Source: an uncultured Actinomycetota bacterium (GTDB lineage Bacteria > Actinomycetota > Actinomycetes > JAFAQI01). From it: DNA of 64,000 nt. The notes below the pieces were generated by a model. That model ran no database searches. It was not told the origin of the DNA and saw nothing but the letters and a program-made list of their open reading frames with translations. Position numbers and translations under genes: made by a program. Position 1 is the first letter of the stretch. The number at the start of each line of letters is the position of its first letter. This document shows, piece after piece, positions 1,211 through 44,525 of the stretch. The DNA is taken from contig CAWBLI010000005.1 in assembly GCA_963789615.1 (NCBI GenBank), forward strand, positions 1,454,309 through 1,518,308, written 5' to 3'.

Positions 1211-2662
1211 TCATCGCCACCGGTCGGGGTCCGGCAGCAGCTCGTTCATCGAGCCGGACCGGAAGCCGCGCGGGTCCAGCTGGACCGTCTCGAACCCCTG
1301 GACCGCGTCGAGGATGCCCGGCCGGGCGGCGACGGCGGGCACCGCCTCGGGATCGACCTCCACCCGGGCCAGGTCGCCGAGATCCCGCACCCGCAGGTCG
1401 CGAATCGCGATGCCGTGCTCGGCCAGTGCCTCCCGCAGCGCGGCTTCGGCCCGTTCTACCCGGGACAGCCGATCGGCGGTGACCTCGACACCGAAGGCGA
1501 TCCGGCTCGACAGGCAGGCGGCGGCCGGCTTGTCCCAGGTCGCGAGCCCCCAGTCGTGGCTTGCCCGTCGCACCGACGCCTTGTCGAGACCGGCGTCGAG
1601 CAGCGGCGTGAGCGCGCCCCGCTCGGCGGCGGCGCGGATCCCGGGCCGGAAACCGGCCGCCACGTCGTCCGCGTTGGTGCCGGTCAGCACGTGCGCCACG
1701 CCCATCGAGGCGGCCAGCTCGGACAACACGTCGAGCAGCTCAGACTTGCAGAACCGGCAGCGGTCACCGGCGTTGGCGCGGTAGCCGTCGCGGGCGAGCT
1801 CGTCGGTGGTGGGCGTCACGTGACGCACCCCGAGTTCCCTGGCGAAGGCGCGGGCCGCGTCGAGCTCGCTGCCCGGCAGGCTCGGTGAGACCGCGGTGGC
1901 GGCGACGACCGACGCCGGGCCGAGGGCGCGCACGGCGGCGGCAAGCAGGAACGCCGAGTCGGCGCCCCCGCTGAACGCGACCATCACCGAGACGAGCCCG
2001 GCCAGCGCAGCGTTGAGCGCGTCGAGACGACCCGGGAGCAGGTATGACGAGAGCCAGCCGGCGAACTCCGTGAGGTCGTCGAGGACCACGTCGGCGCCGG
2101 CCTCGCGCAGCTCGGCGACGGTGTCGGCACCAGTAGCGACGGCGACGGCGGTGGCACCGGCGGTCCGGGCTGCGAGCATGTCGCCAGTGTGGTCACCGAC
2201 GTACACCGCGGCGGCCCGGTCCCGAAGCACCTCGCCCTTGTCCGGTCCCCAGACCCAGCCGACGACCTCGTCGGGGGTGAGCCCGAGCCGCTCGACCGTG
2301 GCCCGCACCGCGGGTTCGTTCTTGGCGCTCACGACGACCGACCGGCCGCCTTCCCGGCGTACCGCGTCCAGCGCCTCGACCGCGCCGGGCAGCAGCGTCG
2401 TCCGCTCGACGCCGAGCGTCATGAAATGGGCGCGGTAGCGGTCGGCGAGCTCACCGACCCGTTCCGGTGCCACCCAGTTGGCCAGCTCGACCTCGAGCAG
2501 CGGCCCGAGCCGGGTCGCCGCGAGCTCGCCGTCGATCTCGATGCCGGTCTCGTCAGAGACGGCGCGGTAGGTCGCCACGACGCCCGGCCGTGGGTCGGCG
2601 AGCGTCATGTCGAGGTCGAAACCGACGACGAGCGGGTGCGGCAGCCCCCGTCTCGTCGTCAT
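1211..2662 (-). CDS. HAD-family hydrolase fused to PP-loop ATPase (LarE-like ATP-dependent sulfur transferase)
   Basis: N-terminal half has HAD motifs (VVGFDLDMTLAD ... VYVGDHTGDMLAA). C-terminal half has the PP-loop SGGADS plus CRFCK, resembling LarE/TIGR00268. Confidence 0.65.
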   Translation of the reverse strand: MTTRRGLPHPLVVGFDLDMTLADPRPGVVATYRAVSDETGIEIDGELAATRLGPLLEVELANWVAPERVGELADRYRAHFMTLGVERTTLLPGAVEALDAVRREGGRSVVVSAKNEPAVRATVERLGLTPDEVVGWVWGPDKGEVLRDRAAAVYVGDHTGDMLAARTAGATAVAVATGADTVAELREAGADVVLDDLTEFAGWLSSYLLPGRLDALNAALAGLVSVMVAFSGGADSAFLLAAAVRALGPASVVAATAVSPSLPGSELDAARAFARELGVRHVTPTTDELARDGYRANAGDRCRFCKSELLDVLSELAASMGVAHVLTGTNADDVAAGFRPGIRAAAERGALTPLLDAGLDKASVRRASHDWGLATWDKPAAACLSSRIAFGVEVTADRLSRVERAEAALREALAEHGIAIRDLRVRDLGDLARVEVDPEAVPAVAARPGILDAVQGFETVQLDPRGFRSGSMNELLPDPDRWR

Positions 2663-2672
2663 TGCTCCGAGA

Positions 2673-3923
2673 CTAGAAGGCTCCGGTGCCCTCCGGCGTA
2701 CCGAGACCGGTCGGGCCGTCGTACCCGGACGTGCCGGTGCACAGGTAGCTGCCGCCGCAGGAACCGTTGCTGCCGCTGGTCACGTCGTTGAGCGAGCCGG
2801 TGTGGGCGTAGGCGAAGGACGCGCCGTTCGTGCTGGCGGCGTTGCCGGCGAGCGCGTAGACGCTCGCGATGATCGGCGAGGCCACGCTGGTGCCGCCGAA
2901 CTCCAGCCAGCCGGACTGGCCCTCGTTGGCGGTGGAGTCGTAGACCGCGACGCCGGTGTTCGGGTCGGCGTCGGCTGAGACGTCAGCGACGGTGCGGTTG
3001 GCGCAGCCGGTGTCGTGCTGCCACGACGGCTTCGGCTCGTACGACGAGCAGCCACTGCCGGTGCCGCCCTCGATGCCCGAGAGCGCGCCGTCGCCCCAGA
3101 CCGTCTCGCTCCAGCCTCGGCTGTTGCTGGCGGTGCTCAGCGAGGTGCCACCGACAGCCGTCACGGACGGAGCCGCCGCCGGGAACTCCACGCCGTACCC
3201 GCTGTCACCGGCGGAGGCCGTGATCGCGATCCCCGGGTGGTTGTAGGCGGAGTTGTCGGCGGTCTCGGAGGAGTCCTCGCTGCCGCCGTAGGAGTTGGAA
3301 ATCTCGGTCGCGCCCAGGGCGGCCGCCTCGTTCTCGGCCTTGACGAGGTCGGAGTCGTTCGCCGTGGACGCCTCGACGAGCAGGATGTGCGCGTTCGGTG
3401 CGATCGCGGAGACCATGTCGAGGTCGAGGGACTCCTCCTGCGCCCAGCCGGTGTCGGTGCTGGGCGGGGTGCTGCCGCCGTTCTCGTTCACCTTGGTGAA
3501 GCAGCCGTTGGCGGTGGTGCAGGCCGACTCGCCGTACTGCGACCGGTACGTCGCCAGGTCCTGGGCCGCGGTCGGGTCGTCGTAAGCGTCGACGATGGCG
3601 ACCGTCTGGCCGCTCCCGGCGCTGGCCGACGGCAGGTCGTAGGCCGACTGCAGGTCGGCCGGCCCGTAGCCCTCGGGGGTGGCGTTCGAGGCCAGCAGGC
3701 CGAACGTGCCGTTGGCGTAGGTCAGCTTCTTGGCCTTCAGCAGCGCCAGACAGGCGACCGACCCGGCCTTCGGAGTCGCGCAGCTCGGGACGAACGTGGT
3801 GGCGGTCGAGACGATCGTCCGGCCGGAGTTCGGCGCCGCGCTGGCGGACGTGGCCGCGGCCAGCGATCCGGTGACGATCAGTGCAGCCGTGGCGACCGCG
3901 AGTCCTGTCGGGTGGCGACGCAT
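2673..3923 (-). CDS. secreted sedolisin/subtilase-like serine peptidase (S53/S8 clan)
   Basis: Signal peptide MRRHPTGLAVATAALIVTGSLAAATSASA. GGTSVASP serine motif. Overall S53 kumamolisin-like pattern. Confidence 0.7.
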   Translation of the reverse strand: MRRHPTGLAVATAALIVTGSLAAATSASAAPNSGRTIVSTATTFVPSCATPKAGSVACLALLKAKKLTYANGTFGLLASNATPEGYGPADLQSAYDLPSASAGSGQTVAIVDAYDDPTAAQDLATYRSQYGESACTTANGCFTKVNENGGSTPPSTDTGWAQEESLDLDMVSAIAPNAHILLVEASTANDSDLVKAENEAAALGATEISNSYGGSEDSSETADNSAYNHPGIAITASAGDSGYGVEFPAAAPSVTAVGGTSLSTASNSRGWSETVWGDGALSGIEGGTGSGCSSYEPKPSWQHDTGCANRTVADVSADADPNTGVAVYDSTANEGQSGWLEFGGTSVASPIIASVYALAGNAASTNGASFAYAHTGSLNDVTSGSNGSCGGSYLCTGTSGYDGPTGLGTPEGTGAF

Positions 3924-4129
3924 GAGTCCTCCGAGCCGTGGATGGGGTGCCGTCGAGGCGAGACCTTATCCGAAAAGTCCGTTTTGTGGGATTTACCCGC
4001 ATTTCGTGCGACGGTAACGGCCGCGGTGGTAGCGGCCTTGTGGACAGCGCTGCGGGCTGTGGACGGCGCCAGCGGCCCCGCGTGCTCGCGCCCTACCGTG
4101 CGCTCCTACCCGTCCACCAGGAGGTCGTC

Positions 4130-4423
4130 ATGGCAGGGATACGCGTCACGCCGGAACAGCTGCAGGGGATGTCGGGCCGGGTGAGCGGCAGCGCGTCGTC
4201 GATCGAGGGTGAGCTCGCCGGACTCGCCGGGGCGCTGGCACCACTCGGCGGCGACTGGGCCGGGCTGGCCAGCCAGCGGTTCGAGCAGTTGTGGGCGGAG
4301 TGGCAGCGCAGCGCGCGCGGCCTGCACGAGGCGCTCACCGGGATCAGCACGCTGCTCAACCAGGCCGGCGCCCACTACGCCGAGGCCGAGCACGCCATCG
4401 CCGGCTCCTTCGGCGCCATGTAG
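4130..4423 (+). CDS. WXG100 family type VII secretion target (ESAT-6-like)
   Basis: 97 aa, MAGIRVTPEQLQGMSGRV...GGDWAGLASQRFEQLW...HYAEAEHAIAGSF. Has the W-x-G motif and helix-turn-helix length typical of EsxA/EsxB. Confidence 0.8.
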   Translation: MAGIRVTPEQLQGMSGRVSGSASSIEGELAGLAGALAPLGGDWAGLASQRFEQLWAEWQRSARGLHEALTGISTLLNQAGAHYAEAEHAIAGSFGAM

Positions 4424-4429
4424 CCCCGC

Positions 4430-4487
4430 CGAGTGCGACGCTTTAGCCCTTTGGGGCCGGTCAGTTAGGGACACAACGTCGCACTCG
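4430..4487. repeat. nested-hairpin repeat element, family A (copy 1)
   Basis: CGAGTGCGACG-N36-CGTCGCACTCG with inner GCCC/GGGAC stem. Begins 6 nt after the WXG100 TAG stop. Near-identical copies at 43537 and 33874. Confidence 0.6.
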
Positions 4488-4508
4488 ACGTGGGTCAGGG
4501 GTACGACG

Positions 4509-4545
4509 AAAAACAGGGGCGGCCCGGTTTCCCGGACCGCCCCTG
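4509..4545 (-). terminator. rho-independent terminator of groEL2
   Basis: On the minus strand: GC-rich 9-bp stem CAGGGGCGG/CCGCCCCTG with a 14-nt loop, followed by a TTTTT tract. Lies 28 nt past the groEL stop. Confidence 0.6.
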
Positions 4546-4572
4546 TCAGGCGTTGCGTGTGGTGCGAGCGGA

Positions 4573-6324
<1,752 letters not shown>

Positions 6325-6429: not shown

Positions 6430-6600
6430 CATGTTTGGGAGCGTTAAGGGCGGGGAATGCAAAGCCGATCTAGTGTGTGCGTGCCACCCAACCGGGTGAC
6501 CGCCGCCTCCGTTCGCCGAACCTGTCCGTCGGAGTGCGCCAATCAACCCATCGGACAGGACCGGGGACCCACGTCACTTGAAGCGCTTCGGCGCTCCTTG
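6430..6600 (+). ncRNA. candidate ydaO-type (cyclic-di-AMP) riboswitch in the 5' leader of the NlpC/P60 hydrolase
   Basis: The roughly 480-nt leader contains GGCGGGGAAUGC ... CCGGGUGACC ... CCGAACCUGUC ... CCGGGGACCCACG blocks reminiscent of ydaO consensus. This riboswitch class is known upstream of actinobacterial cell-wall hydrolases. Confidence 0.35.
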
Positions 6601-6686
6601 GGGTGAAGTCGACGAGATCCTTTCGCCGACCGGGCTAGCACCTGCCCGAACCCGACAGCTAACTCGGCAGGCGTCGGAGAGCACGC

Positions 6687-7265
6687 ATGACTTTTGCGTT
6701 CCTGCGCGCCCGAATGGGTGCTGTTGTCCTCGCCGGTCTGTTCGCCGGCACCGTCCTCGCCGTCTCCCCCACAGCTGCCAGCGCCTCGCCGGCAGCTGGG
6801 ACGGCGACCAACGCCACCGTGTCGCACCACCACCACCTCACGAAGAAGCAGCGGCACCACCGCCACGAGCTGAAGCTTCGTCACCGCTACGAGGTGAAGG
6901 TCCACAAGGTGCTGCACGAGGCCGCCAAGCAGCGCGGCAAGCCCTACGTGTACGGCGCGGCCGGCCCGCACTCCTTCGACTGCTCCGGCCTCGTGATGTA
7001 CGTGTTCCGTCACGCCATCGGCAAGTCCCTTCCCCACAACGCGGCCGCGCAGTACGGCGTCACGCACCACATCTCGCGCAAGCACCTGCGGCGCGGTGAC
7101 CTGGTGTTCGTCGACAACGGCGGCTACATCTCGCACGTGGGGATCTACGCGGGACACAGTTCCAGTCACCGCTACTGGTGGGTCGCGCCGCACACCGGCG
7201 AGCGCGTCCACAAGCAGCCGATCTACCAGGCGCACTTCCTGTACGGCGAGGTCCTTCGCCCCTGA
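6687..7265 (+). CDS. secreted NlpC/P60 family peptidoglycan endopeptidase
   Basis: Signal peptide, His-rich linker, catalytic DCSGLV Cys motif and the HVGIY His motif. Confidence 0.85.
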   Translation: MTFAFLRARMGAVVLAGLFAGTVLAVSPTAASASPAAGTATNATVSHHHHLTKKQRHHRHELKLRHRYEVKVHKVLHEAAKQRGKPYVYGAAGPHSFDCSGLVMYVFRHAIGKSLPHNAAAQYGVTHHISRKHLRRGDLVFVDNGGYISHVGIYAGHSSSHRYWWVAPHTGERVHKQPIYQAHFLYGEVLRP

Positions 7266-7350
7266 CCGGACGATCGACACGCTCTTGTCGCGACAGCGGC
7301 CCGCTACCGACCAGGTGGCGGGCCGTTCGTCGTACCGGGTCGGTTGCGGC

Positions 7351-7628
7351 TCAGCCGCCCGCGACGGCCGGGATGATCGAGACGCTCGCGCCGTCGGGCG
7401 TCGGCGTCTGGAGCCCCTCGGCGAAGCGCACGTCCTCGTCACCGACGTAGACGTTGACGAACCGCCGCAGCTTGCCGTCGTCGTCCAGCACCCGGGCCCG
7501 GATGCCGGGATGGTCGGCATCGAGGCCGTCGAGCACCTCCGCAAGCGTCCGGCGCCGGTCACGTCGACCTCGGCCGAGCCGCCGGTCAGGCCCCGCAGGA
7601 TCGTCGGGATCCGGACGCTGACGCTCAT
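7351..7628 (-). pseudogene. MoaD/ThiS-family sulfur-carrier-like protein ending in GG; frameshifted in this assembly
   Basis: N-terminus MSVSVRIPTILRGLTGGSAEVDVTGAG is in one frame; C-terminus TLAEVLDGLDADHPGIRARVLDDDGKLRRFVNVYVGDEDVRF...IIPAVAGG is in another. One base is missing in the gccgg run at about 7550-7556. Confidence 0.6.
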
Positions 7629-8921
7629 GACGCGAGCCCGGCGTCGCGGAACGCGTCGAGCGACGCCCGGATCGTGGCGGTCGGGCGGGCCACCGGCTCG
7701 ACGGCGTCCAGCGTCTTGAGCCCGTCACCGGTGTTGAGGATGACCGTCTCGGCGTCCGGGTCGAGCTGACCCGAGGCGAGCAGCTTGCGCAGCGTCGCCA
7801 CCGTCACGCCGCCCGCCGTCTCACCGAAGACGCCGGTCGTCTGGGCGAGCAGCCGGATCCCGTCGACGACCTCGTCGTCGGTGACGTCCGCAATCGCCCC
7901 ACCGGTACGACGGACGACGTCGAGCGCGTAGGGCCCGTCGGCCGGGTTGCCGATCCCGAGCGACTTGACGATCCCGCTCGGGCGCACCGGCTGGACGACG
8001 TCCTGCCCGGCCTGGAAGGCCGCCGACACCGGCGAGCAGCCGGCCGACTGCGCCCCGAAGACGGCGTACGGCGTGTCCTCGACCAGACCCAGCTTGGCGA
8101 GCTCGCGCCACGCCTTGTCGACCTTGGTGAGCAGCGATCCCGGACGCGATCGGGACGACGACCTGCTGCGGCAGCCGCCAGCCGAGCTGTTCGGCCACCT
8201 CGTAGCCCACCGTCTTCGAGCCCTCGGCGTAGAAGGGGCGGACGTTGACGTTGACGAAGGCCCACGGCAGCTCGCCGGCGACCTCGGCGCAGAGCCGGTT
8301 GACGTCGTCGTAGGAGCCCTCGACGGCGATCAGGGTCCCGCCGTACACCGCGGTCGTGATCACCTTGCCGGCCTCGAGGTCGTGCGGGATGAACACCACC
8401 GAGCGCATCCCGGACCGGGCACAGGCGGCCGCCACCGCGTTCGCGAGGTTGCCGGTCGACGCCGCCGACAGCACCGCGAAGCCCATCGCCTTGGCCGCCG
8501 AGGCAGCGACCGCCACGACCCGGTCCTTGAACGAGTGCGTGGGGTTCCCGCTGTCGTCCTTCACCCACAACGAACGCATCCCGAGCTCGGCGGCGAGCTT
8601 CTCTGCCGGCACCAGGCGCGTCATGCCGACCTGGAGGTCGACCAGCGGCGCGGCCGGCAGCAGTCCGCCGTACCGCCACATGGTGCGAGGGCCGGCTTCG
8701 ATCGAGGCGCGCGTGACCAGGCGCATCGCGGCCTCGTCGTAGCTGATCTCGAGCGGACCGAAGCACATCTCGCAGACGTGGGACGGGCCGAGGTCGTAGG
8801 TCGCGCCGCACTCGCGGCAGGCCAGGCCGGCCGCGGAGCCGAACCCGGACGTGGAGGGTCGATCGATCAACGAAGTCATGACACCAGAGCCTTCATCATC
8901 TTTCCCGCGGGCTGGGCCCAC
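7625..8921 (-). pseudogene. thrC: threonine synthase with N-terminal zinc ribbon; +1 frameshift at about 8141-8146
   Basis: ORF 7821-8921 carries CRECGATYDLGPSHVCEMC plus PLP lysine region SFKDR and reads to ...PIASG. ORF 7625-8029 carries the ThrC C-terminus QDVVQPVRPSGIVKSLGIGNPADG. The junction tccgggatcgctgctcacc has one extra base. Confidence 0.7.
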
Positions 8922-9060
8922 GGGCCGGACTTGGCACCTGCCCTCACGGGTGGTTGCCGGGGCTTCACCGGGCCGGTCCCTCTGCCCCTCTGGATGACGT
9001 GCGACCCGGAAGCCGCACCGTCTCAGTGTGTCACATGCCTCGCACGCTCAGCGCAGCGCG

Positions 9061-10137: not shown

Positions 10138-11403
10138 TCAGGGGTAGAGGCCTCGGGTGCGGTGCGCCTCGGCGACCCGGCCGACCCCGATCATCTGTGC
10201 CGCCGTACGCAGCGAGACGTCCTGCTCCTGAGCCAGGGCCGATACTTCGCCGTACGCCGACTCGAGAATCGAGGCGAGCCGGTCGTTCACCTCGGTCTCC
10301 GACCAGGCGTAGGCCTGCAGGTCCTGGACCCACTCGAAGTAGGAGACGGCGACGCCACCGGAGTTGGCGAGGATGTCCGGGACGATGATCGTGCCCTTGT
10401 CCTCGAGGACCTCGTCGGCGTCCGGCGTGGTGGGGCCGTTCGCGCCCTCGACGATGAACCTCGCCTTGATCCGGTCGGCGTTCCCGTCGTGGATGACGCT
10501 CTCCAGCGCGGCAGGCACCAGGACATCGACGTCGAGCTCGAGCAGCTCCTCGTTGGAGATGGCGTCCGTCCCGGGGTACCCGACGACCGACTCCATCCCG
10601 CCACCGCGCAGCGCGCGGAGCATCGCGGCGGGGTTCAGCCCCAGCGCGTTGTAGGCACCACCCTTGACGTCGGAGACCGCGACCACCTTGCAGCCGGCGT
10701 CGTGGAGGTACTGCGCGGCGAGGCCACCGACCTTGCCGAAGCCCTGGATCGCGACGGACGCGTCGCGAGGGTCGATGCCGGCCTCGCGCAGCGCGAGGAA
10801 TGCCGTGATCAGCACGCCGCGGCTGGTGGCGCCGCCACGCCCCTGGGAGCCGCCGATGCTCACCGGCTTGCCGGTGACGACACCGGTCACGGTGTAGCCG
10901 CGGTTCACCGAGTAGGTGTCCATGAACCACGCCATGGTCTGTTCGTCGGTGCCGACGTCAGGGGCCGGGATGTCCTTCTCCGGGCCGACGATCGGGCCGA
11001 TCTCGCTGGCGTAGCGACGGGTCACCCGTTCCAGCTCCGTCATGCTGTAGAGCCGGGGGTCGATCGTCACCCCGCCCTTCGCCCCGCCGTACGGGATCCC
11101 GATCAGTGCGCACTTCCAGGTCATCCACATCGCGAGGGCGCGCACCTCGTCGATGTCGGTCGACGGGTGGTAGCGGATGCCGCCCTTGGCCGGCCCCCGC
11201 GAGAGGTTGTGCTGCACCCGGTAGCCGCGGAGCACCTCGGTGCTGCCATCGTCCCGGCGGAGCGGGATCGAGACCGTCATCTCCCGACGGGGCGTGGCGA
11301 GCAGCTGGTGCATTCCGTCGTCGAGGCCGAGCTGCTTCACCGCCTCCGTCAGCTGGGCCTGTGCAGACTGCCACGCAGACTGGCGTGCCACCACCGTTAC
11401 CAC
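10138..11403 (-). CDS. gdhA: NAD(P)-dependent glutamate dehydrogenase
   Basis: KGGIRYHPSTDIDEVRALAMWMTWKCALIGIPYGGAKGG and the GFGKVG Rossmann motif. Start probably GTG (VVTVVARQ). Confidence 0.9.
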   Translation of the reverse strand: MVTVVARQSAWQSAQAQLTEAVKQLGLDDGMHQLLATPRREMTVSIPLRRDDGSTEVLRGYRVQHNLSRGPAKGGIRYHPSTDIDEVRALAMWMTWKCALIGIPYGGAKGGVTIDPRLYSMTELERVTRRYASEIGPIVGPEKDIPAPDVGTDEQTMAWFMDTYSVNRGYTVTGVVTGKPVSIGGSQGRGGATSRGVLITAFLALREAGIDPRDASVAIQGFGKVGGLAAQYLHDAGCKVVAVSDVKGGAYNALGLNPAAMLRALRGGGMESVVGYPGTDAISNEELLELDVDVLVPAALESVIHDGNADRIKARFIVEGANGPTTPDADEVLEDKGTIIVPDILANSGGVAVSYFEWVQDLQAYAWSETEVNDRLASILESAYGEVSALAQEQDVSLRTAAQMIGVGRVAEAHRTRGLYP

Positions 11404-14167: not shown

Positions 14168-14239
14168 GAGCCCCGTGTCCGGATCGAACGGACGACCTGC
14201 CGCTTACAAGGCGGCTGCTCTACCACTGAGCCAACGGGG
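14168..14239 (-). tRNA. tRNA-Thr (anticodon TGT)
   Basis: Reverse complement GCCCCGTTGGCTCAGTGGTAGAGCAGCCGCCTTGTAAGCGGCAGGTCGTCCGTTCGATCCGGACACGGGGCT folds as a cloverleaf. Anticodon loop CTTGTAA. 7-bp acceptor stem, GTTCGATCC T-arm. Confidence 0.85.
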
Positions 14240-14265
14240 CGAGGCTGGTTCAGGGTAGTGCGGAG

Positions 14266-16725: not shown

Positions 16726-16734
16726 CCCTCCAAC

Positions 16735-16795
16735 TGTCAGGACAGCTGAGCGCCGACAAGGGCCAGGTCCACTGACACGTCGGTCAGCTGGCGCG
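16735..16795. repeat. TGTCAGGAC palindromic repeat, family X (copy 1)
   Basis: CTGTCAGGACAGCTGAGCGCCGACAAGGGCCAGGTCCACTGACACGTCGGTCAGCTGG. About 48/58 identical to the copy at 18042. Lies between convergent gene ends. Confidence 0.6.
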
Positions 16796-17993: not shown

Positions 17994-18041
17994 CTGCTCA
18001 ACGAGCCACCACGCTGCGGGTTACGGCCGGTATCGGAAAAC

Positions 18042-18100
18042 CTGTCAGGACGGTCGAGCTCGCAGAAGGGCCGGAGCCACTGACAAGTCGGTCAGCGGGT
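18042..18100. repeat. family X palindromic repeat (copy 2)
   Basis: CTGTCAGGACGGTCGAGCTCGCAGAAGGGCCGGAGCCACTGACAAGTCGGTCAGCGGG. Lies 3' of rlmB and 5' of the sigma factor gene. Confidence 0.6.
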
Positions 18101-33000: not shown

Positions 33001-33877
33001 ATGCGCAGCAGCAGGATCGCCGGTCTCGGAATCGTCGTCGGCCTAGGCCTCGCCTCGGCATGTGGGGCAGGCGACTGGGTTCCACATGGACGGCGCACGC
33101 AACGCCAGCTTCGTTGAGCCCGGGATCACCATCGGGAGCTCGGCACGCCGATGCGGTTGCCGAGGCGAGGCGGCTGGTGCGGCTGAGCCCGACGATGACC
33201 GGCGAGACCCGCATTGCTACCGCCCCCGTGAAGAGCCTGCGGCACCCCCCGTTTGCTCCCGCGGAGAGCCAGCTCGTGATCCGCCACCGGTTCTGGGTCA
33301 GCGACCGGACCCTCACCGCCACGTTCGATGCGCTGAAGAAACTGGCGCCGCACGGCACCCGGACACAAGGCGAGGGAGAGTCCGGCGACCACGGCCGGGT
33401 CACCGAACGGGACATCGAGTTCGCCGTGGTTCACCTGCCGGGCACGCTCGCCGACGCAGACCTAGACATCCAGGTCGTTCGCGACGGCCACGGGCACAGT
33501 GCCGTCGGGGCCTACGCCGAGGTGGTGCCGCAGCCCAAGCGCAGGCCGAACGAGCACGTCCCACTCTCCGTCCGCACCGTGAAACTGTTGCGGCTGAAGG
33601 ATTTTCCGTCGCGAGTCGTCAAGAGCAGGACGATCAATGGCCGTCGCGCCGCAACCCTGGTCCGCGACTTCGATGCCCTCGTGGTCAGGCCCCCCGGCGA
33701 GATGAGCTGCCCGGCCGGCACGCACGAAACCGAGGCGGTCTTCCGTTCCCACGGCCACACCTGGCGGGCGTCGTACCCGTCGTGCGACGCGTGTCCGTCA
33801 CCCGCGGCGGCCACCAGCTGCCCGATCTGGTGCCCGACCGCGCATTCACCCGGGCGTTGCATCGCGACCTCGGTTGA
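33001..33877 (+). pseudogene. hypothetical lipoprotein; signal peptide, body and tail are in three different frames
   Basis: MRSSRIAGLGIVVGLGLASACGAGDW (lipobox LASAC) in frame 1. Body roughly 270 aa in frame 0. TGA at 33875-33877 (frame 2) is embedded in the family A hairpin exactly as for two other genes, suggesting it is the true stop. Confidence 0.35.
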
Positions 33878-33930
33878 GTGTGACGCTCTGTCCCTTCCGA
33901 CCCGGGTAGTAAGGGACGGATCGTCACACT
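33874..33930. repeat. nested-hairpin repeat element, family A (copy 2)
   Basis: TGAGTGTGACG-CTCT-GTCCCTT-N14-AAGGGAC-GGAT-CGTCACACTC. The outer 10-bp stem and inner 7-bp stem match the architecture of copies at 4430 and 43537. Lies between convergent gene ends. Confidence 0.55.
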
Positions 33931-33942
33931 CGACGGGGAGGG

Positions 33943-35262
33943 TTAGCGGTGGAACGGGCCCGAAATGCCCGGCGGCACCGGGACGTGATGCTGCAGCGCC
34001 CAGTCCCGCGCCATCGCGATCCGCGCCGGTGTCGTCGGGTGGTTGAAGAAGAGCACGAAGAGCACCGGCGACGGCTCGAGATCGTCGAGGCCGCTGAGGG
34101 CGAGGTTGCGCTGCGCCTGGACGAAGGCCTGCGGGTCGCGGTCGAGCACCAGCGAGTGATGGTCGGCGCGCGCCTCGATGTGGCGTGACACGACGTTGTA
34201 CAGCGGGCTGATGGCGAAGTTCAGGACGGTGTACGACGCGAGCAGCAGCGGGACGATGAGCGGATCGGCCATGCCGGTGGCGCCGCCGAGTCGCGGCAGC
34301 CGACGGCCGGGGCCGAGGAACGCACCGGCCAGGCACATCGCGGCGGCGACCCCGATCGCGCCTTCCAGGGTGCCGCGCAGTACGTCGTGGTACTTCGAGT
34401 GGCCGAGCTCGTGGGCGGTCAGTGCCCGGATCTCGCGCGGATTGTCGTCGCGCAGCAACGTGTCGTAGAGCACCAGCCGCCGGCTCCCGCCGAAGCCGCT
34501 GACGTAGGCGTTCTCCGAGTTGGTGCGGGCCCCTTCGTGCGCCACCAGGATGTCTTTGAGGGGCTGCCCGTCCCGCCGAGCGAGGGCAAGCAGCGAGGTC
34601 CGCAGCGGGCCGGCTGGCAGCGACGTCGTCGACGTGAACAGCGGCTGCACGGTGTAGGGGTAGACGTACGAACCGACGATGACCAGGGCCGCGCCGACCC
34701 CCGCCGCCCAGATCCACCACCGCCTCGGCGCCCGGCGCGCCAGCGCGATGAGGATCAGCACGACTACCGATGTCGACACGATCGTGACGAGGTAGCCGCG
34801 GCCGACGTCGGCGAACCACCCCGACCACCCTTCGTTGGTCAGGCCGTAGTGCCGCTCGATGGTGTGCTCGTGCGCGGCAATCGGAAGCAGCACCAGCAGG
34901 GTCACCAGGGTGACGAGGACGGCGCCGGCGAAGCCCTGCAGCAGCCACCGCCGGGTCGGGAGCCGCTCGATCAGCCGGGCGCCGAGCGGCGAGAGCCCGA
35001 GCGCCGCCGGGATCAGGATCGACAGGGCCACCGCCAGCAGCCCCCACGGACGGATGACGTCGTGGTACGCCGTCTCCCGGGCGATCTGGGCAGCCGTGAA
35101 GTCCACGGTGGCGTCCGGATGCACCGGTCCGCCCGGCACCTTCCCGGGCAGCGGGTGCCAGGGCGTGGTCAGCGCGATGAGGACGCCGAGACCGACCAGC
35201 AGGATCACGCCGCACAGCAGCGGCGTCCGTCGGCTCACCCCGGCACCGCGGTTGCGAACCAT
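33943..35262 (-). CDS. M48 family (HtpX/Ste24-like) integral membrane zinc metallopeptidase
   Basis: HELGHSKYHD zinc-binding motif, multiple TM helices, downstream E...A...H third ligand region. Confidence 0.75.
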   Translation of the reverse strand: MVRNRGAGVSRRTPLLCGVILLVGLGVLIALTTPWHPLPGKVPGGPVHPDATVDFTAAQIARETAYHDVIRPWGLLAVALSILIPAALGLSPLGARLIERLPTRRWLLQGFAGAVLVTLVTLLVLLPIAAHEHTIERHYGLTNEGWSGWFADVGRGYLVTIVSTSVVVLILIALARRAPRRWWIWAAGVGAALVIVGSYVYPYTVQPLFTSTTSLPAGPLRTSLLALARRDGQPLKDILVAHEGARTNSENAYVSGFGGSRRLVLYDTLLRDDNPREIRALTAHELGHSKYHDVLRGTLEGAIGVAAAMCLAGAFLGPGRRLPRLGGATGMADPLIVPLLLASYTVLNFAISPLYNVVSRHIEARADHHSLVLDRDPQAFVQAQRNLALSGLDDLEPSPVLFVLFFNHPTTPARIAMARDWALQHHVPVPPGISGPFHR

Positions 35263-36014
35263 CGACCGGCGACGTCGAACGAGCGGACCGGCCGGCCGAA
35301 GCATTCGGTCAGTGCCGCCGAGTCACGCAGCAGCGAGACGTCGCCCTGGGCAGTGATCCGGCCGTCGCGCAGCAGGGCGACGTGGCTGGTGGTCGCCGGC
35401 AGCTCTTCCAGGTGGTGGGCCACCGTGACGCTGGCCAGCGCCGGGTCCTCGCCAGCAGCGGTCTCGACCGCGGCGAGCAGGTCGGCCCGGCCGGGAAGAT
35501 CCAGGCCGGCGGCCGGCTCGTCGAGCAGCAACAGCGACGGTCGGGGGACGAGCGCCCGGGCGAGCCGGGCCCGGGCGCGTTCGCCCTGCGAGCACACGCC
35601 GATCCGCCGGTCGGACAGCGGCGAGAGCCCGACCGAGGCGACGAGCCGGCGTACCCGCTCGCGGGTCTCGGCACCGGGTACGCCGAGCGGCTGCACGGTC
35701 TGGGTCGCGCCGGTTTCGACGTACTGCTCGACCGTCAGCTCGCCCGGCAGCCGCAGCCGGACGTCGACGGAGCCGATGGCGCGTCGTAGCTCGCGGACGT
35801 CGACCTGCCCGAGCCGGCGACCGAAGACCTCGACCGTGCCGGACGACGGGAACCGCTGGGCGCCTGCCAGGGCGAGCAGCGTGGACTTGCCGGCGCCGTT
35901 CGCGCCGAGCAGCGCCCAGTGCTCACCGGGAGCGACGACCAGGTCGATCTGGTGGAGGACGTGCGGGCCGCCGGGGAACCACACCTCGGCCCCTCGGATA
36001 GCCAGCACGCTCAC
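35235..36014 (-). CDS. ABC transporter ATP-binding protein
   Basis: Walker A GANGAGKST, ABC signature CSQGERARARLARAL, Walker B LLLLDEP. Confidence 0.7.
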   Translation of the reverse strand: MSVLAIRGAEVWFPGGPHVLHQIDLVVAPGEHWALLGANGAGKSTLLALAGAQRFPSSGTVEVFGRRLGQVDVRELRRAIGSVDVRLRLPGELTVEQYVETGATQTVQPLGVPGAETRERVRRLVASVGLSPLSDRRIGVCSQGERARARLARALVPRPSLLLLDEPAAGLDLPGRADLLAAVETAAGEDPALASVTVAHHLEELPATTSHVALLRDGRITAQGDVSLLRDSAALTECFGRPVRSFDVAGRWFATAVPG

Positions 36015-37482: not shown

Positions 37483-37506
37483 CCCGCCGATGCGGGATAC
37501 CTGAAC

Positions 37507-37555
37507 GTGTCAGGACGCTCGAGCCCTGATTTGGGCCGAGCGTCCTGACACGTCC
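37507..37555. repeat. family X palindromic repeat (copy 4)
   Basis: GTGTCAGGACGCTCGAGCCCTGATTTGGGCCGAGCGTCCTGACAC is a 15-bp perfect inverted repeat sharing the TGTCAGGAC...GTCCTGACAC core. Lies 3' of the hbhA-like gene. Confidence 0.6.
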
Positions 37556-40491: not shown

Positions 40492-43400
40492 ATGCTCAAA
40501 GGCGACCTGGCCACCACACCGCTCGCTCCGCTGCTCCTAGATCTCGCCGATGACAGTGCCACCGGGTGTCTGGTCATCGTCGAGGACAGCGGCGACGGTG
40601 ACGAGGCGCAGCTCTACCTCAAGCAGGGTCTGGTCTACGCCGTACAGGTCCCAGGACGGCGCCCCCAGCTCGGCTCGAAGCTCGTCTCCTCCGGCGCCCT
40701 AGCGCCCGAGGCGCTCGCCGATGCGCTCGAAGCGCAGCGGACCGAGCTGCAGGGCTGGCGCCTCGGCGAGCTGCTGGTCCACCTCGGGTACGTCGAACAG
40801 TCCGTCGTCGAGGCGTTCGTCCGCGAACAGGTCGACGACGCGATGTGGGACCTGATGCGCTGGCACAACGGCCGGTGGAGGTTCCGCAAGAACACGAAGA
40901 CCCGCGAGGACGTCGCCTCTCCGATGGAGGTCGTCGCCCTGCTGTCGAAGCTGCGGGAACGCGGCTACGAGTGGGAGACCATCTCCGCGGTCGTCCACGG
41001 GCCGGCCGCGGTGCCGGTGCTCTCGACGCGCGGCAACGCTGACGCCGAGATGACCCTCGACCCCGACGCCTGGTCGATGCTGTGCAAGATCGACGGCGAG
41101 CGCTCGGTCGCCGACCTGGCCCGCGATTGCGGTTACACGCTTGTTCGAGGCCGGTCACGTCATCGTGAGCCTGGTCCACGCCGGCTTGGTCGACATCGAG
41201 GAAGACGTCGACGTCGCCGGAGGGTGCGGCGTACGGCGCCAGCACGCTGTCGGCTGCCTGGCGCGACAACGCCGAGTCGGCGGAGACCGGTCGAGGTTGG
41301 TACGACGAGCCACAACGGCAACGGTCACGGCGAGCTCGGCGCAAGCGACGACGCCGAAGGCGACGCGCTCTCCCGGCTGGCCCGGCTCGTCACGGAGGTG
41401 GCGGGCGGGCCCGCAGTCTACCGAAGCGGCAGAGGCCGAACCGCTGGCAACCCAGCGAGGTTCTGGACGGTCCGGACTGGCACTCGATGAGCGAGACGGA
41501 CGACTCCTTCGCCGTTGCGCTGGCTCGGGTTTCATCAGCTCTGACCGAGGTACTGGGCCCCGCCAACGGCGAGAGCGATCCCTTCGACGTACCTGGCAAC
41601 ACTTCGCCTCCGCCGGCGTGAGTCCGAGCCCGACCCCGAGTGGGACCGACGCGCGAAGCTTCGCTCGGCGGCAGCCGCCGAGCTGGCGGCCGCACATGCG
41701 CTGGCCGAAGCGCTTCGGCCGCAGGACGAGGGCGAGCAGGAGCAGGCCGAGGCCGAAGGCGACGTCATCCACCTGGCTCCGAGCGAGGCCGAGCTCGCCG
41801 AGCGGAGGCGGCCGCTGAAGAGCAGGCTCGTCTTGAGGCCGAAGCGGAGGCTCGGCTGGAGGCCGAAGCGGAAGCTGCACGCCTCGAAGCGGAAGCAGAA
41901 GCTGCCCGGCTCGAAGCCGAAGCGGAAGCTGCACGTCTCGCCGCCGACGAAGAAGCCGCCCGGCTCGAAGCCGAAGCGGAAGCTGCACGGCTCGAAGCCG
42001 AAGGAGAGGCCGCCAGGCTCGCAGCCGAGGCAGAAGCTGCGCGGCTGGAGGCCGAAGCGGAGGCTGCACGCCTCGCCGCCGAAGACGAAGCCGCCCGGCT
42101 CGAAGCCGAAGCGGAAGCTGCACGCGTCGCCGCCGAAGCCGAGGAGAAGGCCCGGCTCGAGGCCGAAGCCGAGGCCGCACGCGTCGCCGCCGAAGCCGAA
42201 GAGAGGCCGCTCAGGCGGAAGCCGAAGCGGAGGCTGCACGCTCGCCGCCGAAGAAGAGGCCGCACGGCTCGCCGCCGAAGAGGAAGCGCACGGCTCGAAG
42301 CCGAAGAAGAGGCCGCCCGGCTCGCCGCTGAGGAAGAAGCCGCCCGGCTCGAAGCCGAAGCCGAAGCCGCAGGCTGGCTGCCGAGGAAGAAGCCGCCCGG
42401 CTCGCCGCGGACGAAGAAGCCGCCCGGCTCGCCGCTGAGGAAGAGGCAGCACGGCTGGCCGCTGAGGAGCAGGCACAGCTCGAGGCCGAGGCCGAAGCCG
42501 CCCGTGTCGCGGCAGAGGAGCAGGCCCAACTCGAAGCCGAAGCCGAAGCCGCACGCCTGGCCGCCGAGGAAGCGGCTCGCCTCGAAGCAGAGGCCGCTCA
42601 GTTGGCCGCAGACGAGCAAGCACGGCTCGACGCCGAAGCTGAGGCCGCGCGCCTCGAGGCCGAGGCCGAGGCTGAAGCCGAAGCCGCACGCCTGGCCGCG
42701 GAAGAGCAGGCACACCTCGAGGCCGAGGCCGAGGCCGCACGCCTGGCCGAAGCGAGGAGCAGGCACGCCTCGAGGCCGAGGCCGAAGCCGCACGGGCGGC
42801 TGCCGACGAGGCAAGCTCGGGTCGAGGCCGAAGCGGAAGCCGCACGCCTTGCCACCGAAGCTCAAGAGGAGGCCGCTCGCCTTGCCTCCGAGGAGGAGGC
42901 TGCTCGCCTTGCCGTCGAGGAGGCCGAGGCTCGCCTCGCCGCCGAGGAGCAGGCCCGACTTGTCGCGGAGGCCGAGGCGGCGCAACTCGCCGCTGAGGCG
43001 GACACGGCTCGGACGCCGTCGAGGAAGCCGAAGCTCGTCAGCTCGCCGAGCGGGAGTTCGCCCAGCTCGCAGCGGACGACACTCCCTATGTGCAGGCGCC
43101 GGCTGCCGGGTTCAGCGGGGCCGATGAAGAGGCCGCTCGCCTCGCAGACGAGGCGCAGATCGCCCAGCTCGCCGAGATCGCGCTCGACAGAGTGAGTCGG
43201 ACTTCAGCGCCGCGCAAGCAGCCGCCCTGCTGGTCGAGCTGTCCGCGGAACCAGTGACGGGCTACATGCCTCAGTCATCGTCGAATGACGATTACATGAC
43301 GCCTCGCGATGACGACGACGAGGACGACGACATCTATCCCAGACAGCAGGGCGGCGAGAACAAAGCGGATACCGCGGCCCTGTTGCGCGAGCTTTCGTCG

Positions 43401-43526
43401 CTAGGCACCGAGGAGAACAACGGGGACGCACCAGGTCCGCCGACTCCGCCGCGGCCCCAGCAGCAACGCCCCAACGCCGCGAACGACAAGAAGCAGCGCA
43501 AGAAGATCGGCCTCTTCGGCCTGTAG
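40492..43526 (+). pseudogene. DUF4388 (PatA-like N-domain) protein with giant Ala/Glu-rich coiled-coil repeat region and acidic/basic C-terminal tail; multiply frameshifted
   Basis: MLKGDLATTPLAPLLLDLADDSATGCLVIV...WDLMRWHNGRWRF is the DUF4388 domain. More than 40 copies of ARLEAEAEA follow. C-terminus DDDDEDDDIYPRQQ...KKQRKKIGLFGL. The reading frame changes at least 4 times (41148, about 42200, about 42780, about 43200). Confidence 0.5.
41820..43050 (+). repeat. 27-bp tandem repeat (about 45 units) encoding (A-R-L-E-A-E-A-E-A)n
   Basis: Unit consensus gaagccgaagcggaagctgcacgcctc with synonymous and conservative variation. Internal to the DUF4388 protein. Confidence 0.8.
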
Positions 43527-43536
43527 CGGATCACGC

Positions 43537-43594
43537 CGAGTGCAACGTTATTGCCCTTAAAGGGCGCCCGGTTAGGGACATAGCGTCGCACTCG
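43537..43594. repeat. nested-hairpin repeat element, family A (copy 3)
   Basis: CGAGTGCAACG-TTATT-GCCCTTAAAGGGC-GCCCGGTTAGGGACATAG-CGTCGCACTCG-ACGTG. About 85% identical to the copy at 4430 over roughly 60 nt, including the flanking ACGTG. Confidence 0.6.
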
Positions 43595-43613
43595 ACGTGA
43601 TGATGTGGGCTAG

Positions 43614-44525
43614 CTAGGCGTCGACGACTCGTTCGGCTTTGAGGGCCATGCCGGCGACGTTCAGCAACGCGTCGTCCGGGGTCTGACGCTTCACCACAGC
43701 CAGCGCGACCGGGCCGAGCTCGGTGTGCTGCACCGCCGTACCGAGGAAGCCCACCTGCTTGCCATCGAGCTCGATCGGTGTCTGCGGCGGCGGCAGCTCG
43801 TCAGACGTCCCGTCGAGATGACCGAGGATCAACCGACGCGGCGGCCGGCCCAGATTGTGAACGCGCGCAACGGTTTCCTGGCCCCGATAACACCCCTTGT
43901 TCAGATGTACGGCGTGGCCGATCCAGCCGACCTCGTGCGGAATCGTCCGATGGTCGGTCTCGAACCCGAGCCGCGGCCGATGCCCCGCCACCCGCACCGC
44001 CTCGAACGCGTCGTGACCGACGAGCGGCAGGTCGATCCCGTCGACCCGGTCGCCCAGCTCGGCGCGCGGGACGTAGCAGTCCTGGACCGAGCCTTCGGTC
44101 ACCACGGAGAGGATGGCGACGGACTCGGTCTCGTCGCTCACCTCGACCCGCAGCATGAACCGCATCGAGTCGAGGTACGACGTGAGCGCCGGCGCCGTCC
44201 CTGGCTCGACCCCGATCCATGTCGCCTCGCCGTCGTCGACGATCGCGAGGTGGTGCTCGACGTGTCCGTGCGGCGACAGGATCAGCGCCTCGATCGGCGC
44301 CTCCGGCGCCAGCGACTCGAGATGCTGCGACGTGAGCGAATGCAGCCAGGACAACCGGTCCGGCCCGCTGACCCGTACGACGCCACGATGTGACCGGTCG
44401 ACGACGCCTCCCGTCGTCAGCACCGCACGCTGCTCGCCGAACGGATCGCCGTAGTGCCCGGCGACGCCCGCATCGACACCACGGCCAGGCGCAGCGCCGT
44501 GCCGTTGCGATGGGAGCGTGCTCAC
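43614..44525 (-). CDS. ygfZ: folate-binding YgfZ-family protein (GcvT-like, Fe-S cluster repair/tRNA modification)
   Basis: GcvT-like fold and the conserved C-terminal region ...LNKGCYRGQETVARVHNLGRPPRRL (KGCYxGQE motif). Confidence 0.8.
   Translation of the reverse strand: MSTLPSQRHGAAPGRGVDAGVAGHYGDPFGEQRAVLTTGGVVDRSHRGVVRVSGPDRLSWLHSLTSQHLESLAPEAPIEALILSPHGHVEHHLAIVDDGEATWIGVEPGTAPALTSYLDSMRFMLRVEVSDETESVAILSVVTEGSVQDCYVPRAELGDRVDGIDLPLVGHDAFEAVRVAGHRPRLGFETDHRTIPHEVGWIGHAVHLNKGCYRGQETVARVHNLGRPPRRLILGHLDGTSDELPPPQTPIELDGKQVGFLGTAVQHTELGPVALAVVKRQTPDDALLNVAGMALKAERVVDA

Follow-up and report, generated by a model that had tools for sequence, protein, structure and literature searches.

Conserved palindromes at the ends of genes in high-GC Gram-positive bacteria have gone unexplained since 2011, being neither canonical terminators nor linked to an enzyme. 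The Tuberculosis Rho-independent terminator (TRIT) is an example: a largely palindromic, bidirectional stem-loop present in approximately 147 copies per genome, which lies at stop codons or overlaps them (PMC3152330). Among tagged repetitive extragenic palindromes (REPs), those known by the tag CGTC have that tag unpaired, stems of 8–9 bp, loops of 4–5 nt and a CCA tail, and come mostly from the Alphaproteobacteria; tagged REPs have not been reported in the Actinomycetota (PMC3733652), which is where the element considered here occurs. This element, termed family A, was present three times in a 64,000-nt stretch of an uncultured Actinomycetota bacterium (contig CAWBLI010000005.1 of assembly GCA_963789615.1, positions 1,454,309 to 1,518,308), the whole of which is referred to as the window. 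The hairpins in the window are probably solo copies of a REP-like DNA repeat, the cognate protein of which would be a nuclease combining an AbiEi-type winged helix-turn-helix (wHTH) module with a DUF559 domain; its gene would lie between two hairpins at another place in the genome.

A sequence-only reading of the window had described three nested hairpins at gene ends, and direct inspection, a pattern search and a covariance model all returned the three copies at the positions it had given (Table 1). Their full extents take in conserved CGYC and GACG ends, making each a palindrome of 63–64 nt, and the three align over approximately 64 nt to the consensus CGYC-GAGTGYRACG, an inner stem of 35 or 36 nt, CGTYRCACTC and GACG. 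The pattern GAGTGYRACG-N25–50-CGTYRCACTC had three exact matches in the window and none in 100 dinucleotide shuffles. The covariance model, which was built from 80 element copies of other genomes, recovered the same three sites and no others (46–53 bits, E approximately 1e-10 to 1e-12), the next-best match in the window scoring 17 bits; pattern search and covariance model were the checks that the reading itself had proposed, and beyond the window the pattern search showed the element to be widespread in the Actinomycetota. A repeat search grouped the copies into one 66-nt family in which copies 2 and 3 were 71% and 80% identical to copy 1; the latter value, over 66 ungapped nt, replaces an earlier figure of about 85% over 60 nt for copies 1 and 3. 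The outer stem had been given as CGAGTG; the left arm of copy 2 reads TTGAGTG. The inner stem, described as separate, is indeed complementary but continues the outer arms in one long hairpin; it is perfect, with one G.U pair, in copy 2 (TCTGTCCCTT/AAGGGACGGA) and eroded in copy 1 (GCCCTTT...GTTAGGGAC) and copy 3, where an arm also carries one A.C mismatch. Copy 2 is the best-preserved long hairpin, with a minimum free energy (MFE) of -46.7 kcal/mol on the plus strand and -37.9 kcal/mol on the minus strand. The supposed flanking ACGTG is really made up of GACG, which belongs to the element, and a following TG; in copy 2 the corresponding letters are GACGGG. Proximity to plus-strand stop codons was borne out, copies 1 and 3 beginning 3 nt and 7 nt after TAG codons and copy 2 having a TGA (33875–33877) within its left arm, as was the location of all three in convergent gaps, with groEL, an M48 peptidase gene and ygfZ as the respective minus-strand partners.

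The exact-arm pattern plus GACG was scanned in one genome per species (GTDB representatives), which yielded 93 stretches from approximately 40 actinobacterial species; save for a handful of chance matches in other phyla, all matches were from the Actinomycetota. Carriers included two Frankiaceae metagenome-assembled genomes (MAGs), with 24 and 7 stretches, several 'Mycobacteriales' MAGs, Blastococcus, Geodermatophilus, Trujillonella, Cellulomonas, Georgenia, Luteimicrobium and Antiquaquibacter, and further Microlunatus, Streptomyces and a Kineosporiaceae MAG. The distance spanned by GAGTG...CACTC was exactly 55 nt in 80 of 112 matches (window included) and 56 nt in 13 of them. Viral contigs gave six pattern matches, none with a span of 55–56 nt, and the element is essentially absent there. 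No match was obtained at the three elements when the window was scanned with Rfam at gathering scores, a permissive Rfam scan (E up to 1) of four loci with 13 copies gave nothing relevant, and a literature search by the literal arms GAGTGCGACG and CGTCGCACTC and their RNA forms returned unrelated primers only.

Throughout this range the element is one long hairpin with a stem of approximately 29 bp, ends CGTC/GACG and folding energies of -30 to -65 kcal/mol. The outer arms of 14 bp (CGTC GAGTGYGACG and its complement) have been kept in different orders, and between lineages the 35-nt centre is wholly different and yet self-complementary. Among 80 aligned copies, standard pairs occupied 83.5% of stem cells compared with 72% in shuffles, a proportion that dropped to 25–43% when the 3' partner was slid by 1–3 columns. 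Changes on both sides were seen in 17 of 29 stem pairs (at columns 22/42, for example, there were 37 UA, 29 CG and 11 GC pairs, with two unpaired), and the CGTC end pairs with GACG, being 56–84% Watson-Crick per position. Outside these ends there was only a compositional bias, the left flank being C-rich and the right flank G-rich, and no consistent direct repeat was found in the flanks. Since the whole element is an inverted repeat, it possesses the terminal inverted repeats by which a miniature inverted-repeat transposable element (MITE) is defined. The 28 copies in the 24 stretches of MAG BP_197 conform to a genome-specific consensus, with a median identity of 77% in the centre and 3–7 stem mismatches per copy. 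In Cellulomonas aerilata the element forms tandem arrays, one with five copies approximately 140 bp apart (L093 1242–1812) and another with four copies approximately 100 bp apart beside a DUF559 gene (L073 3906–4261); these recall clusters of the bacterial interspersed mosaic element (BIME) type. Two other identities suggested by the GTTAGGG of copies 1 and 3 were rejected: an integron attC site, as this sequence has no RYYYAAC partner and is lineage-specific and the copies are solitary between ordinary genes, and a telomere-like TTAGGG, which is a coincidence.

All-versus-all comparison of the 689 proteins predicted in the 93 element-bearing stretches produced one small cluster of proteins, approximately 300 amino acids long, that each adjoin elements and share only 30–35% identity; the genes are those of L084, L073 and L058 in Table 1. 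A metagenome scan with an alignment of the cluster proteins gave 80 loci, and the two closest homologues among these were bracketed on both sides, in L105 by arms GAGTGTGACG and in L104 by the compensated variant GACTGTGACG/CGTCACAGTC. Three more homologues, fetched by an independent protein search (L184, L185 and L186), were all bracketed, with the stop codon and the downstream hairpin overlapping in L184 and L185. Bracketing by the family-A hairpin was observed in seven independent lineages (L084, L073, L104, L105, L184, L185 and L186). The hairpin centres in L185 (GCCCTTT...GTTAGGGC) resemble those of window copies 1 and 3, in which the inner motif is GCCCTTT...GTTAGGG. The covariance model was also run on 369 kb of loci for which protein homology had been the sole criterion of choice; it identified 12 family-A sites there, and 12/12 adjoin the homologue gene. 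Similar palindromes, mostly 55–75 nt long, were present on both flanks in 25 of the 69 homologue loci with enough flanking sequence (score >= 45), at approximately 40–140 nt before the start codon and 0–120 nt after the stop codon. When an identical flank test (score >= 50) was applied to homologues and to other genes, 9/42 and 5/523 were positive respectively; three of the latter five were in element-selected loci.

These counts bear on the possibility that family A is a conventional MITE or REP, moved by a DDE transposase or by a REP-associated tyrosine transposase (RAYT) of the HUH Y1 type, and that the presence of DUF559 genes is incidental. The terminal-inverted-repeat structure of the whole element and its REP-like genomic distribution would suit such an origin, and a CG/CG repeat at the copy-1 indel (see below) could be a 2-bp target duplication. 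The association is far from incidental, however; no recurrent transposase-like protein was present among the 689 proteins, a set drawn from the 93 stretches and not from whole genomes; the GTAG tag is absent; and REPs of the GTAG and CGTC kinds fall well short of the 63 nt and the stem of approximately 29 bp seen here (PMC3733652). A conventional transposon of this kind was considered highly improbable.

Arms and proteins vary together. The arm types differ between groups of homologues (GATAGTCCGGACTATC; GATCATGGCG; CGAGCGTCGAGTT; CGATGCATGGCACG; TTGACACGTGCATC; and others), and proteins with the same arm type are nearest relatives, with within-group identities of 53–62%, 70–88%, 60%, 65% and 69%. 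The hairpins upstream and downstream of one gene usually share arms and not centres. GAGTG-type arms are kept or compensated across proteins that are 53–62% identical, their centres being unrelated, which argues for selection on the arms and not mere linkage. One group was found in two genomic contexts (L116, L117 and L122 versus L120 and L130), between which homology is bounded by the outer ends of the hairpins; L117 2343–3414 matches L130 707–1777, a length of 1.07 kb. Because homology stops at the hairpins, the hairpin-gene-hairpin arrangement behaves as a distinct cassette. In addition to its two bracketing hairpins, L120 has a solo one of that type at a distance of 2.3 kb, and other arm families therefore also have solo copies.

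The same cassettes could have arisen by the reverse route, in which the palindromes are independent and the AbiEi-DUF559 gene is a parasite resembling a homing endonuclease that duplicated its target palindrome on insertion. In L117 and L122 the flanking copies are nearly identical, centres included, as target duplication predicts; solo copies are far more numerous than genes, and the nuclease domain resembles that of I-Bth0305I, a Vsr-like homing endonuclease. Most units (L104, L105, L108, L158, L166) depart from this expectation, however, in that their flanking copies share arms only, and neither half-palindromes nor pairs of empty and occupied hairpins were seen. Nor does a homing parasite explain the spread of solo copies, and this origin was thought unlikely relative to a repeat that owes its dispersal to the bracketed protein.

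In the family-A-bracketed genes a YTGTGGAY motif was located approximately 45 nt upstream of the ATG (L084 6821, L104 339, L105 2436, L184 4894, L185 9951 and L186 3970). It occurs once per unit, no mirrored counterpart having been found at the downstream end, and is absent at solo copies; a promoter or operator function is possible. The upstream hairpin stands 35–85 nt before the start codon beside this conserved motif, and AbiEi-family proteins autoregulate through inverted repeats (PMC7319586), both of which would be in order if the hairpins were static operators of a transcription-factor regulon, with the AbiEi-like protein as its regulator and the gene for it autoregulated through the upstream hairpin. 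Solo copies, however, lie at the 3' ends of genes, and only 3/94 occupy the divergent gaps where promoters would be situated; the sites also turn over between close relatives, and the catalytic residues of the nuclease are invariant. The chance that the hairpins are operators is accordingly rated as very small.

The protein itself has two recognizable parts. Among 38 homologues, Pfam identified DUF559 (PF04480) in 35, REase_MTES_1575 in 34 and AbiEi_1 in 14, and the AbiEi models of PADLOC match residues 15–200 approximately (E 1e-11 to 1e-14). A profile search of PDB sequences identified the DUF559 protein 3hrl (E 7e-6) and the catalytic domain of I-Bth0305I, 3r3p (E 1e-3), both of which belong to the VSR/DUF559 clade of PD-(D/E)XK nucleases (PMC3424549). 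An AlphaFold model (pLDDT 92, pTM 0.89) matched Rv2827c/AbiEi, 1zel, with a probability of 0.99, and its fold matched 3r3p and 3hrl with a TM score of 0.70 on the target; the Foldseek E-values were weak, such that these fold matches only corroborate the sequence evidence. Residues D228, E239, G242, H245, D252 and R255 are invariant. Sequence profiles and the structural model together place the protein among the DUF559/Vsr-like PD-(D/E)XK nucleases, with nuclease activity as its predicted function. The top Foldseek matches, also weak, were uncharacterised large-subunit proteins of Toxoplasma and Tetrahymena mitochondrial ribosomes (9i05_Xg, 9g6k_L9 and 6z1p_AS), which may reflect the recruitment of DUF559-like domains. 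Binding to inverted repeats is known for AbiEi-type antitoxins (PMC7319586). An AbiEii (DUF1814) toxin gene was not present near the homologues at the loci examined, where the neighbours are unrelated; a type IV toxin-antitoxin system of the AbiE kind was therefore rejected, in spite of the match of the N-terminal half to AbiEi. The family is very large, with 25,184 clusters at 50% identity when E is up to 1e-3 and 10,923 when E is up to 1e-10, and its members are labelled 'very-short-patch-repair endonuclease' or 'DUF559 domain-containing protein' in the source records; none was detected on plasmids by tblastn at E 1e-20. Literature that combined DUF559 with palindromic, repeat or mobile contained nothing relevant, and no description of a system of hairpin plus AbiEi-DUF559 protein was found in the literature searched.

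The position of the copies relative to genes was far from random. Gaps holding copies were convergent, tandem and divergent in 38, 53 and 3 cases respectively, against approximately 15, 63 and 16 expected from the numbers of gaps (p ~3e-11), and one copy falls within a called gene. Of the 53 copies in tandem gaps, 47 were closer to the stop codon upstream of them than to the next start, the median distances being 23 nt and 108 nt respectively. In eight cases, window copy 2 among them, the stop codon is supplied by the TGA of a TGAGTG arm. The polarity of the CGTC/GACG asymmetry showed a weak trend with gene direction (26 vs 15). The simplest explanation for this preference for the 3' side of stop codons is that insertions survive where they do no harm.

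Orthologous sites were compared between the window and its relatives. For copy 3, these were contigs encoding relatives of YgfZ, in all of which gene order and the C-terminal end of the neighbouring protein (...IGLFGL) are conserved. The gap between the two genes differs from one relative to another (Table 1), three other palindrome families occupying it among L100, L101 and L102. At the copy-1 site, L094, a metagenome contig with an identical GroEL, lacks the 59-nt core and is near-identical through the groEL terminator; it reads CCCGTCGCGGG in place of the element, which is itself a mini-palindrome. The core is also missing from L203 and L204, and the element is likewise lacking from contigs with WXG100 proteins 91% and 89% identical to that of the window. 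The junction between filled and empty sites has a CG/CG repeat, either a 2-bp target duplication or microhomology, with several substitutions nearby. Parsimony over four relatives favours a gain of copy 1 in the lineage of the window. The behaviour of the elements in these comparisons is that of discrete insertions which can be replaced, and a conserved, gene-specific structure of the 3' untranslated region (UTR) was thereby ruled out. The WXG100/groEL gap of a relative, L202 (1797–2330), has an insertion of approximately 530 bp, bounded by a direct repeat of approximately 10 bp, TGCCGCCTGC, which the sister contig L203 (679–700) is without, and in another relative, L204, the gap holds a glyoxalase gene; the gap is an insertion hot spot.

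The sequence-only reading had offered two interpretations of its hairpins. One of these, a dispersed REP/MITE-like element, is in agreement with the many copies across the Actinomycetota, their variability at orthologous sites and a placement at gene 3' ends far above chance. The other, a conserved 3' UTR structure, for instance one that determines the stability or localisation of mRNAs for exported proteins, fails in several respects: orthologous 3' regions are without the element or contain unrelated palindromes, the neighbouring genes are functionally unrelated, and neither base pairing nor the downstream sequence bears the mark of an RNA. Selection acting on RNA would be expected to leave an excess of G.U over A.C mismatches on the sense strand. 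Among the 46 tandem-gap copies oriented with their genes, there were 96 G.U and 103 A.C (p = 0.67), and a lower MFE on the sense strand was not found. The 12 nt located 3' of the hairpin on the sense strand had a mean T fraction of 0.14 and a maximum of 0.33, the right flanks being G-rich. A canonical Rho-independent terminator was ruled out, the hairpin having no U-rich tract. From the lack of strand bias, the lack of a T-tract and the nearby terminator of groEL it follows that the palindrome is kept regardless of strand and is not a canonical terminator. There was no indication that RNA was under selection, and the element was treated as strandless DNA.

Another form of RNA element was considered: a bidirectional terminator of the U-tract-independent (I-shaped, TRIT-like) type, or a stabiliser of 3' ends, selected for that role. 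Its attraction lies in the position of the copies directly after stop codons, their strong enrichment in convergent gaps, the great stability of the hairpins (-30 to -65 kcal/mol) and the precedent of the mycobacterial TRIT, for which a factor binding double-stranded RNA has been proposed (PMC3152330). It has to contend with the missing T-tract, the equality of G.U and A.C and a sense MFE that is no lower; with a canonical terminator already present in the copy-1 gap (4515–4546); with relatives in which the same gaps are empty or hold unrelated palindromes; and with the copies upstream of the start of the DUF559 gene. Furthermore, predicted TRITs of M. tuberculosis overlap only 2–4% of mapped 3' ends (10.1101/2022.06.01.494293). 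A primary role in RNA was regarded as improbable on balance.

If the hairpins are indeed solo copies of a repeat served by the AbiEi-DUF559 protein, the following sequence of events may be envisaged, with the protein as the agent that mobilises the hairpin. The wHTH module would read the 14-bp outer arms as its recognition sequence, and the 35-nt centre would be free to vary provided that self-complementarity and a core span of 55–56 nt were preserved. The nuclease would act on the palindrome, either as inverted repeats in duplex DNA or as an extruded cruciform, and so generate or maintain the solo copies. These would arise as discrete insertions and persist almost exclusively just 3' of stop codons, chiefly in convergent gaps, where they do little harm; some would substitute for the terminal part of a coding sequence and provide its TGA stop, as copy 2 may have done. 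Transcripts would acquire a very stable 3' hairpin, any terminating or stabilising effect of which would be a by-product and not the force that shaped the element. Hairpin and protein together would then constitute a repeat-plus-enzyme system analogous to the REP/REPIN-RAYT pairs, with a different nuclease fold.

Several observations weigh against this account. The 64-kb window contains no AbiEi-DUF559 gene, and none was captured in the 24 stretches of MAG BP_197, the richest genome; conversely, L184 and L185, which together amount to 36 kb, hold no solo copies. The co-variation of arms and genes could result from linkage and joint inheritance alone, and the invariance of the 10-bp arms in the alignment of scanned copies is partly by construction, these having been set by the search pattern. 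The gene calls in the loci rest on a codon log-odds caller developed for this purpose and trained on the same loci. The one filled/empty pair, at copy 1, fits precise deletion as well as insertion, its junction being ambiguous, and a role at the RNA level, whether in U-tract-independent termination or 3' protection, may be compatible with the absence of strand bias. Lastly, the link from the protein to movement of the hairpin is drawn by inference and not from experiment or polymorphism.

The genes around the three copies are listed in Table 1. The DUF4388/PatA_N repeat protein upstream of copy 3 starts at 40492, and its orthologue in L100 is a PatA_N protein of 785 amino acids. In the window, a 27-bp tandem repeat within the coding sequence (EAEAARLEA...) runs to approximately 30 copies at 41796–43016 of this gene (40492–43526), which seems to be split into three open reading frames (ORFs), a sign of either an assembly error in the repeat or a pseudogene. 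The ORF upstream of copy 2 (33140–33877) has no Pfam match. It follows one coding frame to approximately 33700 and another from approximately 33740 to the TGA in the arm; this switch of frame, near 33720, makes the gene call uncertain and may reflect either a frameshift or replacement of the C-terminus when the element was inserted. The window also contains a second dispersed palindrome family, ACGTGTCAGGAC...GTCCTGACACGT, which additionally fills the gap orthologous to that of copy 3 in L102 and L103. No gene was associated with the second family among the loci fetched.

Table 1. Coordinates of the family-A copies, of neighbouring and other features in the window, and of related sites and bracketed genes in other loci (L numbers).
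Locus	Feature	Position	Strand	Remarks
Window	Family-A copy 1	4427–4490	strandless	CGCC-GAGTGCGACG-36-nt inner-CGTCGCACTC-GACG; covariance model 46–48 bits on both strands
Window	Family-A copy 2	33872–33935	strandless	GGTT-GAGTGTGACG-inner-CGTCACACTC-GACG; covariance model 53 bits
Window	Family-A copy 3	43534–43597	strandless	CGCC-GAGTGCAACG-inner-CGTCGCACTC-GACG; covariance model 46–49 bits
Window	WXG100 gene	4130–4423	+	PF06013, E 6.7e-22; TAG stop precedes copy 1
Window	groEL terminator	4515–4546	-	Ordinary GC-rich hairpin and T5 run, read from the sequence; kept in L094, L203 and L204, all without the element
Window	groEL	4573–6201	-	Converges on copy 1
Window	M48 peptidase gene	33943–35304	-	PF01435, E 1e-18; converges on copy 2
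Window	C-terminal ORF (...KKIGLFGL) of DUF4388/PatA_N repeat protein	43254–43526	+	TAG stop precedes copy 3
Window	ygfZ (folate-binding GCV_T family)	43614–44525	-	Converges on copy 3; anchor of the orthologous-site test
Window	c-di-AMP (ydaO) riboswitch	6527–6688	+	Rfam gathering-score match
Window	SAM riboswitch	8893–9000	-	Rfam gathering-score match
Window	tRNA	14169–14240	-	Rfam gathering-score match
Window	Second palindrome family	16731–16781, 18039–18089, 37504–37554
Window	ygfZ/DUF4388 gap			Family-A element
L101 (YgfZ 95%)	ygfZ/DUF4388 gap	1296–1440		4.5 tandem copies of an unrelated 32-nt hairpin unit, CACACGCATGGCCCATTGGTGTG...
L102, L103 (YgfZ 86%)	ygfZ/DUF4388 gap			Second palindrome family of the window, TGTCAGGAC...GTCCTGACA
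L095–L099 (YgfZ 84%)	ygfZ/DUF4388 gap			13 nt, empty of the element
L100 (YgfZ 78%)	ygfZ/DUF4388 gap	10915–11025		Another tandem palindrome, GCAATGTGGCATTGC...GTCAGGGGGCAC
L084 (Mycobacteriales MAG)	Bracketed gene	6870–7763		Elements at 6758–6812 and 7834–7888
L073 (Cellulomonas aerilata)	Bracketed gene	4315–5232		Element arrays on both sides
L058 (Antiquaquibacter soli)	Gene adjoining element	~3843–4721		One element, ~40 nt upstream

With a candidate cognate protein and arms that co-vary with it, binding, cleavage, mobilisation and effects on neighbouring genes become testable for gene-end palindromes of this kind. If the protein does drive the repeats, the way of life seen in REP-RAYT systems would have been invented a second time, independently and with a different nuclease fold. 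A function would thereby be assigned to a very large family whose members now bear the name 'DUF559' or the erroneous annotation 'very-short-patch-repair endonuclease', and sequence-programmable structure-specific nucleases could be obtained. For annotation, the elements account for many intergenic hairpins, some stop codons, and breaks in assemblies and alignments of actinobacterial genomes. A wider generalization was entertained more tentatively, at somewhat less than even odds: that there is a large actinobacterial class of replicators parallel to REPIN-RAYT, consisting of perfect palindromes of approximately 60 nt with specificity arms of 12–16 bp and of cognate AbiEi-wHTH/DUF559 nucleases that recognise the palindromes, generate or maintain them, have genes bracketed by them and co-diversify with the arms. 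TRIT may be one branch of this class.

Among known systems, TRIT is the closest positional analogue; compared by description only, it is likewise palindromic, situated near stop codons and suspected of having a protein partner. It differs in being reportedly restricted to Mycobacterium and in having no associated protein gene described (PMC3152330). A family-A-like copy with the same arms and a span of 54 nt was observed in a convergent gap of an uncultured Mycobacterium sp. (L087 4839–4892), where the upstream gene ends 8 nt inside the element; this -8 position is that reported for TRIT, and hints at a possible kinship of the two. Membership of the GTAG REPs was rejected, the ends being CGYC/GACG and not a GTAG tag, and the size 63 nt with a stem of approximately 29 bp as against 20–40 nt. 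The CGTC-tagged REPs also have CGTC at the end of a dispersed palindrome, and a transposase has not been identified for them (PMC3733652), but the families CGTC-1 to -4 were ruled out, as here CGTC is paired with GACG inside the long stem.

On the side of the protein, AbiEi antitoxins such as Rv2827c (1zel) have the same N-terminal wHTH and AbiEi C-terminal domain; unlike them, the protein described here has no AbiEii (DUF1814) toxin gene alongside and has a nuclease domain fused instead. The free-standing Vsr-like (EDxHD) homing endonucleases, represented by I-Bth0305I (3r3p), share the nuclease fold and the appearance of a small, selfish, single-gene unit, but here the gene is outside any intron or intein, an AbiEi-type module is fused to it, and the palindromes that bracket it are also abundant as solo copies. 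The unit of approximately 1.07 kb with the same hairpins at both ends might correspond to the parent of a MITE; its protein is a predicted PD-(D/E)XK nuclease and not a known transposase. There is a resemblance to REP/REPIN-RAYT systems, in which short extragenic palindromes likewise occur in many copies 3' of genes, in convergent as well as tandem gaps, and bracket a cognate gene present in single copy; in those systems, too, repeat and protein co-diversify and each genome has its own consensus. The difference is in the enzyme, which here joins an AbiEi-like wHTH to a DUF559/Vsr-like PD-(D/E)XK domain and is not an HUH Y1 transposase. As a repeat, then, the element is of a familiar kind, and the AbiEi-DUF559 gene that it brackets is a new twist on the theme of REP plus enzyme.

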